From Amoebophilaceae bacterium UBA1467 (GTDB taxonomy: Bacteria > Bacteroidota > Bacteroidia > Cytophagales > Amoebophilaceae), in NCBI GenBank assembly GCA_002325615.1, contig DCSL01000020.1:1585-27825 (forward strand): a stretch of 26,241 bases of DNA, read 5' to 3'. The position numbers and the translations under genes are program-made. This document shows positions 30 to 13,564 of the stretch, piece by piece. Below the pieces are notes generated by a model. The model saw only the letters and a program-made list of their open reading frames with translations, ran no database searches and was not told where the DNA came from. How positions within the stretch are numbered: the stretch's first letter is position 1; every line of letters starts with the position of its first letter.

Positions 30-569
30 ATGTCTCAAGTAAAATCAACAACAGTGCTTGCTGTCATGCACAATAATGAGGTAGCCATTGGTGCAGATGG
101 GCAGGCTACCCTGGGCAACACTATAGCCAAAAGCAACGTCAGAAAGCTAAGAAAACTGCTAAACGGCAAGATTATAACAGGCTTTGCCGGGTCTACAGCA
201 GATGCATTTACGCTGCTAGACCGTTTTGATGAAAAACTACAGAGCTATGCAGGCAACATGAAACGCGCTGCTATTGAGCTAGCCAAGGATTGGCGCATGG
301 ACCGTTACCTGAGGAGACTAGAAGCCATGCTGATCGTGGCGAACAAAGAAGAATTGCTTATTGTCTCTGGAACAGGAGATGTTATAGAACCTGACAACCA
401 AATTGCTGCGATAGGGTCTGGTAGTATGTATGCTCAGTCAGCAGCTGTTGCCCTCAAGAAGCATGCTCCTCACCTAAGCGCAAAAGAGATCGTTCAAGAA
501 AGCCTCACCGTGGCAGCAGACATCTGCATCTACACCAACCATAACATCGTCATCGAAAAGCTTGCTTAA
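30..569 (+). CDS. hslV: ATP-dependent protease peptidase subunit HslV (ClpQ)
   Basis: 179 aa. Short propeptide then catalytic N-terminal STT (KSTTVLAV); GDGQ-like ADGQATLG, GFAGSTADAFTL and AAIGSGSMYA motifs; C-terminal AADICIYTNHN. All typical of HslV. Confidence 0.96.
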   Translation: MSQVKSTTVLAVMHNNEVAIGADGQATLGNTIAKSNVRKLRKLLNGKIITGFAGSTADAFTLLDRFDEKLQSYAGNMKRAAIELAKDWRMDRYLRRLEAMLIVANKEELLIVSGTGDVIEPDNQIAAIGSGSMYAQSAAVALKKHAPHLSAKEIVQESLTVAADICIYTNHNIVIEKLA

Positions 570-807
570 AATGTTGGCACATTATCAGGCTTCAGACAAT
601 AAGCCTTGCTATTGTCATAGGGCCAGACCCTATAAATTTCCAAAAAGTATGAGCTGTGCACACTACCGATCCCTTGTGCCTTTCACATAAATTTTTTTCG
701 TATCTGCAGATGCATCAAATAGAAAAATTTGCGAATGCCATACTTTTTTATTAAAAAGGACTCTGGACTAATTAATAAGAAGAAATACAAATAATACACA
801 ATTGGCT

Positions 808-2139
808 ATGCAAACCGCCCTTACCAGAGAACAGAAAAGAGCTATAGGATTGTTGTCGATAGGAACATTCCTAGAGTATTTTGACCTTCAGCTGTATATC
901 CACATGGCATTGCTCCTGAACAATGTCTTCTTTGCCAAGACCGACCCCTTCAATGCCGCATTATTATCGGCATTTGCATTCTGCTCTACCTATTTACTGA
1001 AACCTTTTGGAGCACTTATATTCGGCTATATCGGAGATTTTATTGGTAGGAAGCTGGTCATAGTGATCACCACCATCATCATGGCGATCACTTGTACTAC
1101 CATCACTTTTTTACCATCCTATGCCCAGATAGGCATTACGGCTTCTATAGTTATTACAATGTGTCGTATGCTGCAAGGCATGGCGGCCAGTGCCGAATCT
1201 AGGGGCGCAGAAATTTACATTACCGAGAGTTTCAACCCACCCCTGCAATATCCTCTGGTGGCCATCATTACAGTTTTTTCTGCAGTGGGTACCAGTATGG
1301 CGCTGGGGATAGGATCTTTTTTTACGAATGAGCGTATTTTTGGTACAGAACATGAGTATTGGAGAGTAGCCTTTTTATTGGGTGCTATCATAGGACTGGT
1401 TGGCGGAGCTGCCAGAACCAGTTTAAAGGAGGCGTCAGAATTTTCCCATAAAAAGAAGATGTTGAAAGCGAGATTTTCTGACAACAAAATAGCTTGGGAT
1501 GAGGACCTTGTGAAGAATAAATTTGATCAACAAAAAGTCTCTTTGACCTCTTTGGCATACTTCTTCATATGCTGTGCAAGGTCGCCTTGCTTCTATTTTA
1601 TTTATATCTACTGCGCAGATGTACTGAAGAACGATCTGGCCCTCTCGGCAAGTGCCATCATTTATCACAATTTCTGGGTATCCATTGTGGATATGCTCGG
1701 GTTGCTTTTTCTAGCCTATCTTAGCAGCAAGGTATATCCTATACGCATACTAAAAGCAAAATTCATTTTGTTCTTTGCGTGCATTGTTTTTTTCCCCATA
1801 GTGATGCATAGCTATCCCAGCGAAAGTGTCGTTTTTTTCTTTCAGTGCCTAGCTGCCCTGTTTGTATTCGACGACATACCTGCCAGCCCGATATTTTATA
1901 GACACTTCCCAATCATGAAAAGATTTACCTACACTAGCCTACTAAGTGCACTAGCCAAGTTAATGACTTACGTGATCACTTCATTTGGTCTCGTATACGC
2001 TACCAAGTATTTCGGATACTATGGGATATTTGTCATATTAGTTCCAGTAGGGGGGCTATACTATTTAGCAGTCAGGTATTTTGACAGACTAGAAGGGGCA
2101 AAACAGGCCTTTCATCAAATACACTCTCCCTCTTCTTGA
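808..2139 (+). CDS. MFS transporter, ProP-like (MHS family), Rickettsia-type
   Basis: ATG at 808 (ORF track starts at TTG 802). N-terminus LTREQKRAIGLLSIGTFLEYFD; MFS motif A region FGYIGDFIGRK; CRMLQG; about 12 hydrophobic segments. Confidence 0.9.
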   Translation: MQTALTREQKRAIGLLSIGTFLEYFDLQLYIHMALLLNNVFFAKTDPFNAALLSAFAFCSTYLLKPFGALIFGYIGDFIGRKLVIVITTIIMAITCTTITFLPSYAQIGITASIVITMCRMLQGMAASAESRGAEIYITESFNPPLQYPLVAIITVFSAVGTSMALGIGSFFTNERIFGTEHEYWRVAFLLGAIIGLVGGAARTSLKEASEFSHKKKMLKARFSDNKIAWDEDLVKNKFDQQKVSLTSLAYFFICCARSPCFYFIYIYCADVLKNDLALSASAIIYHNFWVSIVDMLGLLFLAYLSSKVYPIRILKAKFILFFACIVFFPIVMHSYPSESVVFFFQCLAALFVFDDIPASPIFYRHFPIMKRFTYTSLLSALAKLMTYVITSFGLVYATKYFGYYGIFVILVPVGGLYYLAVRYFDRLEGAKQAFHQIHSPSS

Positions 2140-2746
2140 TGTCACTTGCTGCAACTACCCCCAATTCGATATTCAACTTTAGGCATTCTGTGTACAGGTG
2201 TGTGCCGTGCTGGCTTAAAGAAAATTCTTCAGCAAGAATCAAGAAGTTTCTTATGGTTTCAGCTATTTTTTCTTTTTTCTTTTTTTCGGGTAAGCAACGA
2301 ATTGTACGTATGTTATGGAGCCTATCAATGGTTTTTATTAGAATCACTTCTCTATCATTATTTTGATGGGCATAACGCAGCATTGCCTCCACGCTTAACT
2401 TACTTTTATCAGGTCTATCACGAGTAAGCCTGTCTACCATTTCAGCTACTCGCCACCCAAAACTGTCTAGGACCATGCCTATGGTAACCTCTGTATCTTC
2501 AACGATATCGTGTAGTATACTGGCAACAATTACATCGGTTTTTAGGCTATCATCAGCCACCATATAGGCTACCTCCAACACATGGGTATAAAAAGGCTCT
2601 CCGCTTTTTCTCACCTGGACACCATGGTATTTTTTGGCCCAGTGAATAGCATTATTGATTAAATCAAAGTTTAGTACGCCCCCTTCCTCTAAATCTAGGG
2701 ATTTAAGTTTTTCAATTAATCTGATCGAGTATGTGCAAGTAAGCAT
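2072..2746 (-). CDS. Stand-alone RelA/SpoT-type HD-domain hydrolase (small alarmone hydrolase-like)
   Basis: 224 aa with YHGVQVRKSGEPFYTH, ILHDIVEDT and IKTIDRLHNIRT, the ordered RSH hydrolase motifs. No synthetase, TGS or ACT region. Confidence 0.9.
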   Translation of the reverse strand: MLTCTYSIRLIEKLKSLDLEEGGVLNFDLINNAIHWAKKYHGVQVRKSGEPFYTHVLEVAYMVADDSLKTDVIVASILHDIVEDTEVTIGMVLDSFGWRVAEMVDRLTRDRPDKSKLSVEAMLRYAHQNNDREVILIKTIDRLHNIRTIRCLPEKKKKEKIAETIRNFLILAEEFSLSQHGTHLYTECLKLNIELGVVAASDIKKRESVFDERPVLPLLVCQNT

Positions 2747-3193
2747 AAAGATTTATTTACTAAGCTTTTTTGACTAAAATTATCATAAAATTTATATTTT
2801 AGGACAAAAAGTAAATTTTTAGCATGAATCTTAGCTGCTCGAGCAAGTAGACTTTCTTGTCGATACGTACGACTTGCTTTTGGGTTCCTATCATTATAGT
2901 ACCTTTTCTGGCAGGCGTGTATCGCATTACTTTGGTTGGTAGCTACATGGATCAATGTCAGATCTGAGTAACCACACAATACAGATGTGGGTTCTTTCTA
3001 GCTGCGGTGCTTGTACTGGGCGAAATGCTGCCAAGTTGCAATAGCAACCCGGATAAAAGCATTTGCATAATACCCCAAGCACTTCCCCAACAACGTAGCT
3101 GCCTTCGGCAAGGTTGCGTGGGAGCACTACTTTGGCGATGATGTGTAGTAGGTTAGGAGACTTTAGTAGCCCGGAGTCGCTGGGCAAGGGATG

Positions 3194-10090: not shown

Positions 10091-13000
10091 ATGCATTATC
10101 TTAGTATAGATTACTTGATTATTTATGCGTTCTTGCTCATCACCCTTGTTATAGGCCTCTGTGCGGGTAGGGGTATCACAGACATTCGGGAGTATGCCAA
10201 TGCTAACAAGATATTTGGGACCGGGGCATTGGTGCTAACTTGGCTAGCTACAGATGTTGCAGGAGAAACTGTGTTGGATATGACGGGTTCTGTGAGAACC
10301 GCAGGCATCATACAGCCACTTACGGTTTTTGGCGGTTGGGCCATTGCCATATTGCTACAGGCGCTGGTGTTTGCCCCTAGGTTTATTCAGTTTAGCAACT
10401 GTATTACCATGGGAGACGTCATGGGAGTGCTTTATAAAGGTCCTAGTCAGGTCATGACAGGGATATTGGGCTTCTTCACGGCGCTCTGTATTGCAGGGAT
10501 GGAGCTAACGGTCATAGGCATACTCAGTGAGAGCCTGGGTATTGGCTTTCACGTCGGGGTCTGGGTGGGGGGTATGTTGCTGGTGTTGTATACCACCCAT
10601 GGTGGCATTAAGTCAGTGGCTTTCACAGATGTGTTTCAAGGACTCGTACTGTTTGCTGTTTTGCCGATCATCACAGTAGCGGCTTTGAAACAAGCAGGGG
10701 GCATCAAGCAAGTGTTGATCCAGGTGCCCACTACACAACTGCAATTGTTGAACCACCCTAAGTCATCCTACTATACAGCACTGTTCCTATCGCTCAGTAT
10801 TTTCCAGTTTTCTGTCATTGACCCTGCCCTGATGCAGCGCATACTGATGGGAAGAACCAAACAGCAGTTGCGCAATCAATTTTTTATCGTAGCGGCATGT
10901 TTATTGGCCTTGATGGTTGCTTTATCCTTGCTGGGACTTGCGAGCATCGTTTTACTGCCCGACGAAAACACAGATGTGCCTATAGTGCTACGCATCATTG
11001 AGCATATTCTCCCCATAGGGCTGAAAGGGTTGGCCTTGGCAGGCCTTATAGCCATTACCATGGCAACGTTCGATTCATTTCTGCATGCGGCAGGGCTCAC
11101 CTTAATTCATGATGTTATTTATCCAGTATGTAAAAGGCTGGGCAACACCATCGACGAACTAAAATGGGTGCGCTATGCTACGGTTTGTATAGGTATTGCC
11201 GTTATTGTGATTGGCTCAATGCGTGCAAATGATCTCTATAACTATGTATTGCTCTCTTATAAATTTACGGGCCCCCTATTAGCCTTCCCACTTTTTGCAG
11301 GTGTCTTGGGGCTTAAACCTGATCAAAAAGCTTTTTATGCTGCTTCGGGCGTGACCATCGCAGTGATTTTGCTGAGTGAGTGGTTGTTGCCAGCATCTCA
11401 AGATCGTTGGGTTTCAGTGGTGGGAGTGGTCACTAATGGGATAGTCTTTTTGGGCATCCATGCTATACGCAACCATGGCTTTGCTATTGTCAATCGTACT
11501 CATAGCAAAGAATATTTGTGGAGACCACACCGTGCAAGCATATGGACGCAGCTTAAGCAGTTGCTACCCACACCCCAGCGTATAGTACAGTATTCGCAAA
11601 GGCAAGTAGCACATTATGGTGCACCCTATGCTTTATTCGGCATATTCTGCTGTGTCAACTATCTCTTTCCATACTTCATGTGGGAGCATGACGCCCCTGC
11701 TTCTTATAACTTGATGCTTTATTTGCGTACCCTAGGTGTCCTTGCCTGTGGTTTGTTGCTCGTGAGAGACAAATGGACCCAATCTTTGCTGCCATACCTA
11801 CCCACCTTCTGGCACTTGACACTGCTCTACTGCCTGCCCTTTACCAGCACCGTCATGTTCTTGCTCACCCAAGGAAGTGTAGAGTGGCTCATCAATGTGG
11901 CCCTCACCATCATGTTCCTCATTGTCCTCGTAGACTGGATGAGCTTTATGATCCTTACAATACTAGGTATAGCCCTGGGTTTTCTCTTCTACACACTAGC
12001 CATTGGCCCGATCAGCCTGCAACTGGACTTTAGTACCGGGTATTTGTTGTTATACCAAGGCATCTTTGCCACGCTCATCGGCCTGCTTTTTGCGCGTAGG
12101 AAGCAACTACACTTTGACACCTTGGCCACCCAGCAAAAACAGTTGGCTATCGATAACCAGGCAAGCAAAGAAGAACTCATAGAAGCCACAGAAAAAGAGT
12201 TTCGGTTTGTGAGCCTCCTCAAAAAGGCCGGCATAGAACAACTAGGGAGTGTAGCCCACCTGAGCAAAAAACTCCTAGCCATCAGCCAACAGAAAGGTGA
12301 CATCAAGGAATTCGAAAAACTAGCCCAGCAACTCACTGACCAGCTCACCCCCATGGCCCTAAGTATGGATAAATTTATACACCGTACCACAGGCTTTTTA
12401 CTCCTGGATGGCGTGGAGACACTACCACTTGACAACTTCTTGCAAGCCCTACAACAGGCGTTCTATAAAAAGGGCCAAAGACTTAAGATAGAAGTACGTA
12501 CACAACACAAAACGTTACAGTGTGATATAGAAAAGATGAAGAAGGTGATTCTGAACGGTTTCTCTTTCGTGCAGTCAGTGGCTGGAGAAAGAGAACAAGG
12601 ACCTGTGTTACTAGGTATAGAAGATACGCGGCTAGGCTATGCGGTGGACTCTGTAAGCCCTGATCACATCAAGAAAATAAGGGCCCTGCGATTTGCCATT
12701 ACTACTGCCCCCACACTACCTACGCTAGCTGCGCTGTACACGGCACAAATAGGTGAGGAAAGCATTATGAAACCCGAAGCACCCACTAATATGCCTCTAT
12801 TGGCGAACGAGCGGATTGTGAAGGCTCACTATGGTTACAGCAGCACGATCAGTGAGGGCAATGAGCTCACGCTAGTCTATGTCATTCCTGTCAACGTCCG
12901 AGAGGTGCGTTCCAAAGACATGGATATGCCACATATGAAGCTAGGTGAGGAGTGGCTTCGGGCCGATGATACCTACCCAGGCGCACAAGAGCAAGAGCAA

Positions 13001-13564
13001 ACATTCCTCCAAGCAGTCAAAGAGCGGTCACAAGCAGGTCTCTCCCTAGTAGAAAAAGCCATCAATCTGATCAAGGACTACCACGGTCCTGTCATGCGTC
13101 AGAGTGGCGAGCCGTTTTACTTACATCCGATTGCAGTAGCACAGATTGTACTGGACTATAACACCGACGAAGCCACTGTATTGGGAGCCCTCTTGCACGA
13201 TATAGTAGAGGATACTCCCCTGACGCTAGAGCAGATAGAATTGTTGTTTAATAAGGAAGTAAGCAACATTGTAAGCGGGGTAACCCACATGGAGAGCAAC
13301 AAAGAGACGCTCTATCAAGTGCTGCTCTCCCATCCTGAAAACATCCATAGGCTCTTAGGAGCCGAAGACCCACGAGTGTTGTATGTGAAGCTAGCCGACC
13401 GCATGCACAACCTACGTACCATTCAGGCCAGATCTTATGAGAGCCAACACAGAACTGCTGAGGAGACGTTGCTCTTCTTTGTGCCCTTGGCCAAGTACTT
13501 AGGCCTCAGTGAGGCTGCTGAGGAACTTAAGCACAGGAGTTTTGGGGTGCTGGGGAGCATGTAG
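10091..13564 (+). CDS. Na+/solute symporter (SSS/PutP-like) - multi-TM module - pseudo-histidine-kinase - RelA/SpoT HD hydrolase fusion
   Basis: aa 1-~460 SSS (YTTHGGIKSVAFTDVFQ, DPALMQR, LKGLALAGLIAITMATFDS). aa ~512-669 about 5-6 further TM helices. aa ~700-935 kinase-like fold lacking catalytic motifs. aa ~985-1150 HD domain (YHGPVMRQSGEPFYLHP, LLHDIVEDT, VKLADRMHNLRT). Confidence 0.9.
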   Translation: MHYLSIDYLIIYAFLLITLVIGLCAGRGITDIREYANANKIFGTGALVLTWLATDVAGETVLDMTGSVRTAGIIQPLTVFGGWAIAILLQALVFAPRFIQFSNCITMGDVMGVLYKGPSQVMTGILGFFTALCIAGMELTVIGILSESLGIGFHVGVWVGGMLLVLYTTHGGIKSVAFTDVFQGLVLFAVLPIITVAALKQAGGIKQVLIQVPTTQLQLLNHPKSSYYTALFLSLSIFQFSVIDPALMQRILMGRTKQQLRNQFFIVAACLLALMVALSLLGLASIVLLPDENTDVPIVLRIIEHILPIGLKGLALAGLIAITMATFDSFLHAAGLTLIHDVIYPVCKRLGNTIDELKWVRYATVCIGIAVIVIGSMRANDLYNYVLLSYKFTGPLLAFPLFAGVLGLKPDQKAFYAASGVTIAVILLSEWLLPASQDRWVSVVGVVTNGIVFLGIHAIRNHGFAIVNRTHSKEYLWRPHRASIWTQLKQLLPTPQRIVQYSQRQVAHYGAPYALFGIFCCVNYLFPYFMWEHDAPASYNLMLYLRTLGVLACGLLLVRDKWTQSLLPYLPTFWHLTLLYCLPFTSTVMFLLTQGSVEWLINVALTIMFLIVLVDWMSFMILTILGIALGFLFYTLAIGPISLQLDFSTGYLLLYQGIFATLIGLLFARRKQLHFDTLATQQKQLAIDNQASKEELIEATEKEFRFVSLLKKAGIEQLGSVAHLSKKLLAISQQKGDIKEFEKLAQQLTDQLTPMALSMDKFIHRTTGFLLLDGVETLPLDNFLQALQQAFYKKGQRLKIEVRTQHKTLQCDIEKMKKVILNGFSFVQSVAGEREQGPVLLGIEDTRLGYAVDSVSPDHIKKIRALRFAITTAPTLPTLAALYTAQIGEESIMKPEAPTNMPLLANERIVKAHYGYSSTISEGNELTLVYVIPVNVREVRSKDMDMPHMKLGEEWLRADDTYPGAQEQEQTFLQAVKERSQAGLSLVEKAINLIKDYHGPVMRQSGEPFYLHPIAVAQIVLDYNTDEATVLGALLHDIVEDTPLTLEQIELLFNKEVSNIVSGVTHMESNKETLYQVLLSHPENIHRLLGAEDPRVLYVKLADRMHNLRTIQARSYESQHRTAEETLLFFVPLAKYLGLSEAAEELKHRSFGVLGSM

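Follow-up and report, generated by a model that had tools for sequence, protein, structure and literature searches.

In Rickettsia felis, seven of the 14 spoT genes adjoin a gene for a major facilitator superfamily (MFS) transporter annotated for proline/betaine (Ogata 2005, PMC1166351), and hydrolases of the 'RickSpo' group are common to Rickettsiales and Amoebophilus (Atkinson 2011, PMC3153485). An association with rickettsial mobile elements is common for ProP and SpoT paralogues (PMC4316617), and SpoT hydrolases are cargo of the Rickettsiales amplified genetic element (RAGE) in Orientia (PMC10732058). Here, we describe a gene pair of this type in a 26,241-nucleotide stretch of DNA (the window) from Amoebophilaceae bacterium UBA1467 (GenBank assembly GCA_002325615.1, contig DCSL01000020.1, positions 1,585 to 27,825 of the forward strand). 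According to the list of open reading frames (ORFs), the pair consists of an MFS gene (802-2139, plus strand) and a gene for a stand-alone HD hydrolase of the RelA/SpoT type (2072-2746, minus strand), which converge between hslV and the gene of an M20 dipeptidase. We consider it likely that the segment 569-3192 is a small genomic islet with a rickettsial (Megaira-like) two-gene cassette in the Amoebophilaceae chromosome, and that the two proteins function as proposed below. The window lies on contig 78 of an 858,736-base assembly of 83 contigs that is 92.9% complete; the host is an Amoebophilaceae endosymbiont (Bacteroidota) with a genome of 0.86 Mb, and the sequencing runs holding the window DNA are microbial-mat metagenomes. 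At the compared loci (200-nt windows, 17-21 per locus pair), three genomes of the same genus have DNA identical to that of NCBI metagenome-assembled genomes labelled Amoebophilaceae bacterium (JANPMB01, JALOLY01) or uncultured Cytophagales bacterium (CAYVYH01), and the look-alikes of PheS belong to Bacteroidota.

Because spoT-MFS adjacency (PMC1166351) and the sharing of RickSpo hydrolases (PMC3153485) have both been described, the pair type is already known, and the window is a clear further example rather than a new system. The R. felis pairs resemble it in placing a hydrolase-only spoT paralogue beside an MFS gene; their report (PMC1166351) gives the adjacency only, while orientation and overlap are absent from it. 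The Rickettsia loci fetched here have the same convergent, overlapping layout as the window, but their copies are 59-61% (MFS) and 34-35% (HD) identical to those of the window, and the window pair resides in Bacteroidota and falls in a Megaira subclade. As for the RickSpo hydrolases, the window HD clusters with stand-alone HDs of Rickettsiaceae, and relative to the RickSpo of Amoebophilus the window copy appears to be a separate, later acquisition in another Amoebophilaceae genus. What is new here is the transfer of the unit from Megaira to Amoebophilaceae as the better-supported reading, the variable site at tRNA-Ala, the count of the near-universal 3' overlap and the MFS-HD fusions; the finding of the pair on plasmids is also added.

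The closest matches of the pair proteins are metagenomic relatives with 85-94% identity. For both proteins the next tier is formed by Candidatus Megaira/Megaera (Rickettsiaceae), with 77% identity for the MFS protein (to a Megaera polyxenophila protein) and 60-63% for the HD protein, while within the window's own genus the best copies from other species attain no more than 63% (MFS) and 58% (HD). The nearest named relatives are the chromosomal pair of Megaera polyxenophila (NZ_CP104166.1, L016) and the pairs of the Rickettsiaceae metagenome-assembled genome (MAG) GCA_021300375.1 (L012-L015), with 77% (MFS) and 60-61% (HD) identity and the convergent overlapping layout seen in the window. The Megaera pair differs in having an overlap of 35 nt versus 68 nt in the window, where the MFS frame is 11 codons longer, and in being flanked by rplS/trmD instead of hslV/tRNA-Ala. 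At the DNA level, the similarity between the window and Megaira (70.6%) is confined to 826-2737, which is exactly the two genes, and the GC content of the MFS (0.42) and HD (0.40) genes is below that of neighbouring genes (0.45-0.48). In the unrooted MFS tree (120 rows), the window and three syntenic metagenome relatives group with a support of 100, with the Megaira clade as their sister (99) and the Rickettsiaceae MAG SGMAG-38 next (97). The unrooted HD tree (67 rows) likewise places the window clade as sister to Megaira (100/98). In an approximately unbiased (AU) test on a 36-row MFS subset, in which the constrained group had been defined after the tree had been seen, a single clade for the MFS copies of the genus was rejected (p = 6e-36) at a cost of 954 log-likelihood units. 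Beside the Megaira/window clade, a clade of its own is formed by MFS paralogues from the Rickettsiales MAG loci L038, L044, and L069, where five of them stand in tandem arrays without HD partners.

The identity of the nearest relatives, the two trees, the restriction of DNA homology to the pair and its lower GC content indicate that the pair moved between phyla as a unit, and the direction from Rickettsiaceae to Amoebophilaceae is the better-supported reading of these comparisons. A sequence-only reading of this DNA had proposed an inter-phylum two-gene module, and this is borne out: the nearest non-self relatives of both proteins are found in Rickettsiaceae (Megaira) in the same arrangement, both trees agree, and the best matches are not vertically inherited genes of Bacteroidota.

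The features of the locus are as follows, by window coordinates.

30-569, plus strand: hslV, resident left flank of the variable spot (NCBIfam HslV equivalog, 275 bits)
570-801: AT-rich spacer 5' of the MFS gene, forming the left portion of the 2.6-kb segment that sister species lack
802-2139, plus strand: putative MHS-family MFS transporter, annotated 'ProP-like', 445 amino acids (aa) from TTG 802 (Pfam MFS_1, Sugar_tr)
2072-2139: 68-nt stretch coding on both strands, for the C-terminal tails of the MFS and HD proteins
2072-2746, minus strand: predicted stand-alone RelA/SpoT-type HD hydrolase (small alarmone hydrolase, RickSpo-like), 224 aa (Pfam HD_4, HD)
2747-3192: spacer from the HD start to the tRNA, right part of the inserted segment
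3193-3267, minus strand: tRNA-Ala(TGC), identified by ARAGORN, whose 3' end abuts the inserted segment
3382-4797, minus strand: M20 dipeptidase, resident right flank (NCBIfam dipeptidase equivalog, 552.7 bits)

An alternative start of the MFS gene, ATG 808, lies two codons inside the TTG 802 start. The hslV gene is 84-96% identical to copies in seven other species of the genus, and an HSDR_N_2 protein is also encoded among the neighbours of the pair. The left spacer has a GC content of 0.345 versus 0.457 for the window and is alignable to the relative L009 (90%) only, the empty sites described below having no match to it. The right spacer is single-copy in the genome; its homology to L009 stops at 2886, beyond which no protein or DNA match was found in any fetched locus.

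In four genomes of the same genus (G042, G047, G041, and G046), hslV, tRNA-Ala, and the M20 gene are adjacent without the pair, and at these empty sites tblastn and profile hidden Markov models (HMMs) run on six-frame translations gave no decayed MFS or HD gene better than E ~0.2. Compared with G042, collinearity ends at window position 568 and returns at 3193, and G042 has 240 bases where the window has 2,624; the segment absent in G042 thus ends exactly at the 3' end of tRNA-Ala(TGC). Among species of the genus, the spacer from tRNA-Ala to hslV differs completely, with lengths from 240 to ~850 nt, and is alignable only between G041 and G046. The tRNA gene is 97% identical to the G047 copy, and the flanking genes ~78-82%. 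The site behaves as a variable spot beside a tRNA gene. A chimeric contig was considered and rejected, since the order hslV-MFS-HD also occurs in independent JGI, ENA, and Logan assemblies.

The pair occupies the same site in three metagenome loci, L009 (90%), L122, and L120, where it is accompanied by insertion sequence (IS) fragments, a full DDE transposase or a pseudogene copy of hslV. Transposase genes or fragments of the DDE_Tnp_1/DUF772 type adjoin the pair in L009 (6682-7705) and L122 (10063-11406), and it is at these points that synteny with the window is lost (at window base 2886 in L009). In L120, the MFS gene is separated from the intact hslV by a decayed second hslV (10327-10830, minus strand), which has three in-frame stops and shares ~60% identity with the intact one. 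Such an arrangement suggests that a local duplication took place, tied to the insertion or to a later rearrangement; an origin of this copy from the donor was rejected, as it is a pseudogene with three stops that resembles the resident hslV. Synonymous divergence (dS) of the pair equals that of its flanks in all three comparisons (L009, 0.30-0.31 vs 0.33; L122, 0.95 vs 0.92; L120, 1.56 vs 1.4-1.5), and the pair has thus been inherited with the chromosome since those lineages split.

The L122 and L120 values, by which the pair diverges in step with its flanks and is old in the lineage, would also suit a reversed history, in which an old Amoebophilaceae paralogue was lost from most lineages and Megaira was the recipient; many such pairs exist in Amoebophilaceae, and the trees are unrooted. 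We regard this history as very unlikely. In both trees, the clade of window and Megaira has successive outgroups from Rickettsiaceae or Rickettsiales; G047, which is outside the carrier clade, and three other species have an empty site; and the GC content of the pair is shifted below that of its neighbours toward an AT-rich donor. Vertical descent of the pair itself is excluded by the 77% identity between phyla.

The HD protein matches HD_4 (PF13328) with 65.3 bits (cut-off 27.2) and HD (PF01966) with 27.4 bits (cut-off 22), and covers only positions 1-150 of the 687-position NCBIfam spoT_relA model. No synthetase, TGS, or ACT domain was found in the 224-aa polypeptide with Pfam, only the HD_4/HD domains. 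Its catalytic motifs (RKSGEPFYTH, LHDIVEDT, and DRLHNIRT) are without substitution relative to the structures 5xnx, 8acu, and 8fr8, and in the alignment to solved Rel hydrolase domains, 1vj7 included, the residues R-K-S-G-E-P...H, H-D..E-D, and D-R-L-H-N are all kept. The ORFs, Pfam, NCBIfam, and this structure-based alignment therefore agree with the sequence-only reading, which had described an MFS gene and a 224-aa hydrolase-only HD gene with intact motifs. The long Rel/SpoT enzymes (Rel_Seq, 1vj7; Mycobacterium tuberculosis Rel, 5xnx) share the HD fold family and all catalytic motifs with the window protein (E 7e-23 to 8e-21), while MESH1 (3nr1, 5vxa), of the same fold family, is a weaker match (E 2e-12). 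The window HD differs from the long enzymes in being without synthetase, TGS, and ACT domains, and from both the long enzymes and MESH1 in having ~45 additional residues as a C-terminal tail, part of which is encoded by the overlap. Its place in the RickSpo group is given by tree position, not by the authors' HMM, the window falling in a 59-row clade with stand-alone HDs of Rickettsia, Tisiphia, and Megaira. Taken together, the HD protein is predicted to be a small alarmone hydrolase (hydrolase-only) of the RelA/SpoT homologue (RSH) superfamily. Ratios of nonsynonymous to synonymous divergence (dN/dS) are 0.08-0.16 for the HD gene and 0.05-0.10 for the MFS gene, compared with 0.04-0.19 for the flanking hslV and M20 genes; both genes of the pair are intact and under purifying selection.

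In the genome, a single RSH with a synthetase was identified, a long Rel of 598 aa with HD, RelA_SpoT, TGS, and partial AH/RIS domains (L129:709-2505, G000 contig C28). With this enzyme (p)ppGpp can presumably be made, and the hydrolase would thus have a substrate. No ACT domain was detected in this Rel, which is thus shorter than typical long Rel enzymes. The genome also holds approximately six further HD_4 matches, mostly in ORFs of ~950-1,170 aa that resemble the 1,157-aa SSS-HD gene of the window, plus decayed copies. Among the latter are two stand-alone HD genes, C50:137-729 with seven in-frame stops and C31:11579-12112 with two, and such decayed copies point to other hydrolase copies being lost while the Megaira-type copy is kept. 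A toxin-antitoxin function (toxSAS/SAH) was considered and rejected, as the partner is a transporter and there is no small synthetase nearby, and neither the MFS nor the HD protein matched the defence models of PADLOC.

The MFS protein matches Pfam MFS_1 above its cut-off (65.6 bits), as well as Sugar_tr. The top NCBIfam model is TIGR00883 (metabolite/H+ symporter), with 168.7 bits, which is below the cut-off of 443, and the protein is thereby predicted to be a divergent member of the MHS family or of a sister family. Like E. coli ProP, it belongs to the MFS subfamily neighbourhood of metabolite:H+ symporters and has the N-terminal signature region; a G-L-L-S-x-G-T-F-L-E-Y-F-D block near the N-terminus is invariant in 13 of 13 aligned family members. 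The identification as ProP made in the sequence-only reading is nevertheless not upheld, because the ProP equivalog NF007927 is matched with only 109.7 bits against a cut-off of 544, and over model positions 23-330 of 500, so that the C-terminal part is unmatched. The C-terminal cytoplasmic extension of E. coli ProP forms a coiled coil. By both the extent of the NCBIfam match and the 13-member alignment, in which the MFS protein ends 14 residues past the last invariant column, this extension appears to be absent from the window protein. Rickettsial ProP groups have uncharacterised substrates and may carry amino acids (PMC5615194).

An HD gene adjoins the 3' end of 73 of the 136 MFS relatives in the fetched loci (71 convergent, two fused on the same strand); the pairing is therefore not a matter of chance, nor is the adjacency a peculiarity of this genome. 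Carriers include Rickettsia, Tisiphia, Megaira, Finniella/Paracaedibacteraceae, MAGs labelled as Francisellaceae, and Amoebophilaceae. In Rickettsiaceae, Paracaedibacteraceae, Francisellaceae-labelled MAGs, and Amoebophilaceae, the overlapping unit occurs in multiple copies. The pair is carried by plasmids of Megaira and Rickettsia, and a plasmid of Paracaedibacter acanthamoebae carries an MFS relative; on a plasmid of Megaera polyxenophila, the closest named HD (63%) is solitary, with IS630 and IS982 elements around it. The pair was also found on 13 IMG/VR contigs. On one of these (L158, 31 kb, predicted viral) it lies near genes for a DNA methyltransferase, a DnaB-like helicase, a ParA-like protein, and a RecE-like exonuclease; phage structural genes were not seen in the stretch of L158 that was examined, and the gene set looks more like that of a plasmid or an integrative conjugative element (ICE) than of a phage. 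No MFS relative was found among the INPHARED phage genomes at E <= 1e-30. The earlier proposal that the pair is RAGE cargo is not supported. Published work does connect ProP and SpoT paralogues with rickettsial mobile elements, but no integrase or tra gene is present at the locus; TraC_F_IV was not found in the 92.9%-complete assembly, and its only two tyrosine recombinases (~300 aa) are encoded on other contigs. Of the features of RAGE, flanking integrase and F-type tra/trb genes are lacking, while insertion at a tRNA gene is shared by the segment.

The two genes had been described as lying directly against each other; they are indeed adjacent, but this understates the arrangement, since their 3' ends overlap by 68 nt. 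Such a 3'-3' overlap of the reading frames, 4-185 nt long with a median of 56 nt, is found in 60 of the 61 distinct convergent pairs, despite protein divergence to ~45% and ~35% identity, while the other convergent ORF pairs in the window (n = 3) are 39-108 nt apart. The overlap would make the two mRNAs complementary, and importer and hydrolase could thereby be reciprocally controlled as an antisense toggle, for example if the transcription of the two genes collides or RNase III cleaves the paired RNAs. In an RNA library, a contig of a relative with ~93% identity spans 1857-2258, passing the MFS stop and reaching 119 nt into the HD gene, the rest of which is uncovered; such coverage would fit an MFS transcript that reads through and is antisense to the HD 3' end, although the contig is strandless and DNA may be present in the library. 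When the overlap was folded for the window and for Megaira, no significant or conserved RNA structure emerged (z-scores from -0.8 to +1.5), and promoter and terminator scans were at the chance level of shuffled sequence. Neither the length nor the sequence of the overlap is conserved, as would be expected if stop codons simply drift in the absence of a spacer, and overlaps are favoured by the deletion bias of reduced genomes. We therefore consider an antisense toggle unlikely.

Transporters and HD hydrolase domains are also joined in single polypeptides in Amoebophilaceae. These fusions, the SSS-HD protein of the window (10091-13564) and the MFS-HD proteins of genus g8, resemble the window pair in combining a transporter with an HD_4 hydrolase domain, but each is one polypeptide, and their HD clade is separate from the pair HDs of the RickSpo type. 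The single-ORF MFS-HD fusions of g8 are 665-693 aa long, for example 665 aa with MFS_1 and HD_4 (L098:109-2106, G026), and several copies per genome were observed in G026 and G027. HD matches occur in 44 of 48 genomes of the family, mostly inside ORFs of ~1,100-1,200 aa. In the HD tree, the HD domains of the g8 fusions group with the long transporter-fused ORFs and not with the pair HDs, and a branch with a support of 96/97 separates the pair-type HDs from the transporter-fused domains. The stand-alone gene had been taken for the unfused counterpart of the SSS-HD fusion; this does not hold, as the two HDs stand on opposite sides of this branch and are 33% identical, and they are best described, from their sequences, as analogues of different origin. 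The combination of a transporter with an alarmone hydrolase thus appears to be a recurrent one, reached more than once, and this recurrence is the main argument for a functional meaning of the adjacency.

We propose that the HD protein is a Mn-dependent (p)ppGpp 3'-pyrophosphohydrolase that would lower the alarmone made by the single long Rel of the genome, and that the MFS protein would import a host metabolite by proton symport, most likely an amino acid or a compatible solute. The pair may be kept together because nutrient uptake and removal of the starvation signal would serve one purpose, and the 3' overlap would make it move and duplicate as one piece. A coupling of uptake to alarmone turnover is plausible on these grounds; it could be physical, regulatory through the antisense 3' ends, or a matter of mere genetic linkage.

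Several observations weigh against an islet with a transferred and functionally coupled cassette. The direction of transfer is read from trees without a root and from how restricted the pair is within the genus. In the genus the pair is patchy: in the M20 tree the sister of the window is G042, with an empty site (99/95), and the carriers L122 and L120 are further out, so that, after a single insertion, either two or three losses or a spread by recombination inside the genus must be assumed. No att repeat, inverted repeat, or relic of an integrase or transposase was found in 570-801 and 2747-3192; these two spacers gave only short repeats at the chance level and no protein match. Finally, the partners are not strictly co-inherited, as the HDs closest to that of the window also pair with a different MFS clade, and this reshuffling suggests that the linkage may reflect co-mobility more than co-function.

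This last point bears on an explanation by linkage without functional coupling, in which the overlapping 3' ends make the pair one inseparable mobile piece while hydrolase and transporter act independently, and in which the HD protein may use (p)ppApp or NADPH. NADPH has been reported as a substrate of MESH1. Reshuffled partners are seen at a second Megaera locus (L049), where the HD is 59% identical to that of the window and the MFS only 47%, and in G042:C27, where the MFS is 63% and the HD 41% identical; the solo HD genes among IS elements on the Megaira plasmid fit the same picture, and the PDB relatives of the HD protein include MESH1 and a (p)ppApp hydrolase, with weaker scores. We nonetheless find this explanation less probable than a coupled pair, while ranking it above the antisense toggle, because the independent g8 MFS-HD fusions and the many SSS-HD-like ORFs of ~1,100-1,200 aa in the family point to a transporter plus HD as a selected combination. 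The HD protein is closest to true Rel hydrolase domains (E 7e-23) and not to MESH1 (2e-12), and the presence of a synthetase in the genome also counts against an uncoupled hydrolase or another substrate.

On the preferred reading of a transferred two-gene cassette, current understanding is unchanged, and the value of the locus lies in a well-documented case and a testable hypothesis on the conserved overlap. More speculatively, the near-universal 3'-3' overlap and the independent transporter-HD fusions raise the rather doubtful possibility that intracellular bacteria have in this pair a self-contained unit for nutrient sensing, in which the importer signals its substrate to the hydrolase by membrane contact, as a transceptor, or through the antisense mRNA ends. 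If true, such a unit would spread between phyla since no host-specific partners would be needed. The locus is a clean and datable case in which an Amoebophilaceae genus appears to have received a unit from the Megaira lineage, a unit since maintained by selection, in keeping with the view that obligate intracellular bacteria of unrelated phyla share a gene pool for life in eukaryotic cells. It also adds to the evidence that the alarmone hydrolases of these organisms are almost always attached to transporters, either adjacent or fused, which may point to an unexplored tie of the stringent response to host supply.

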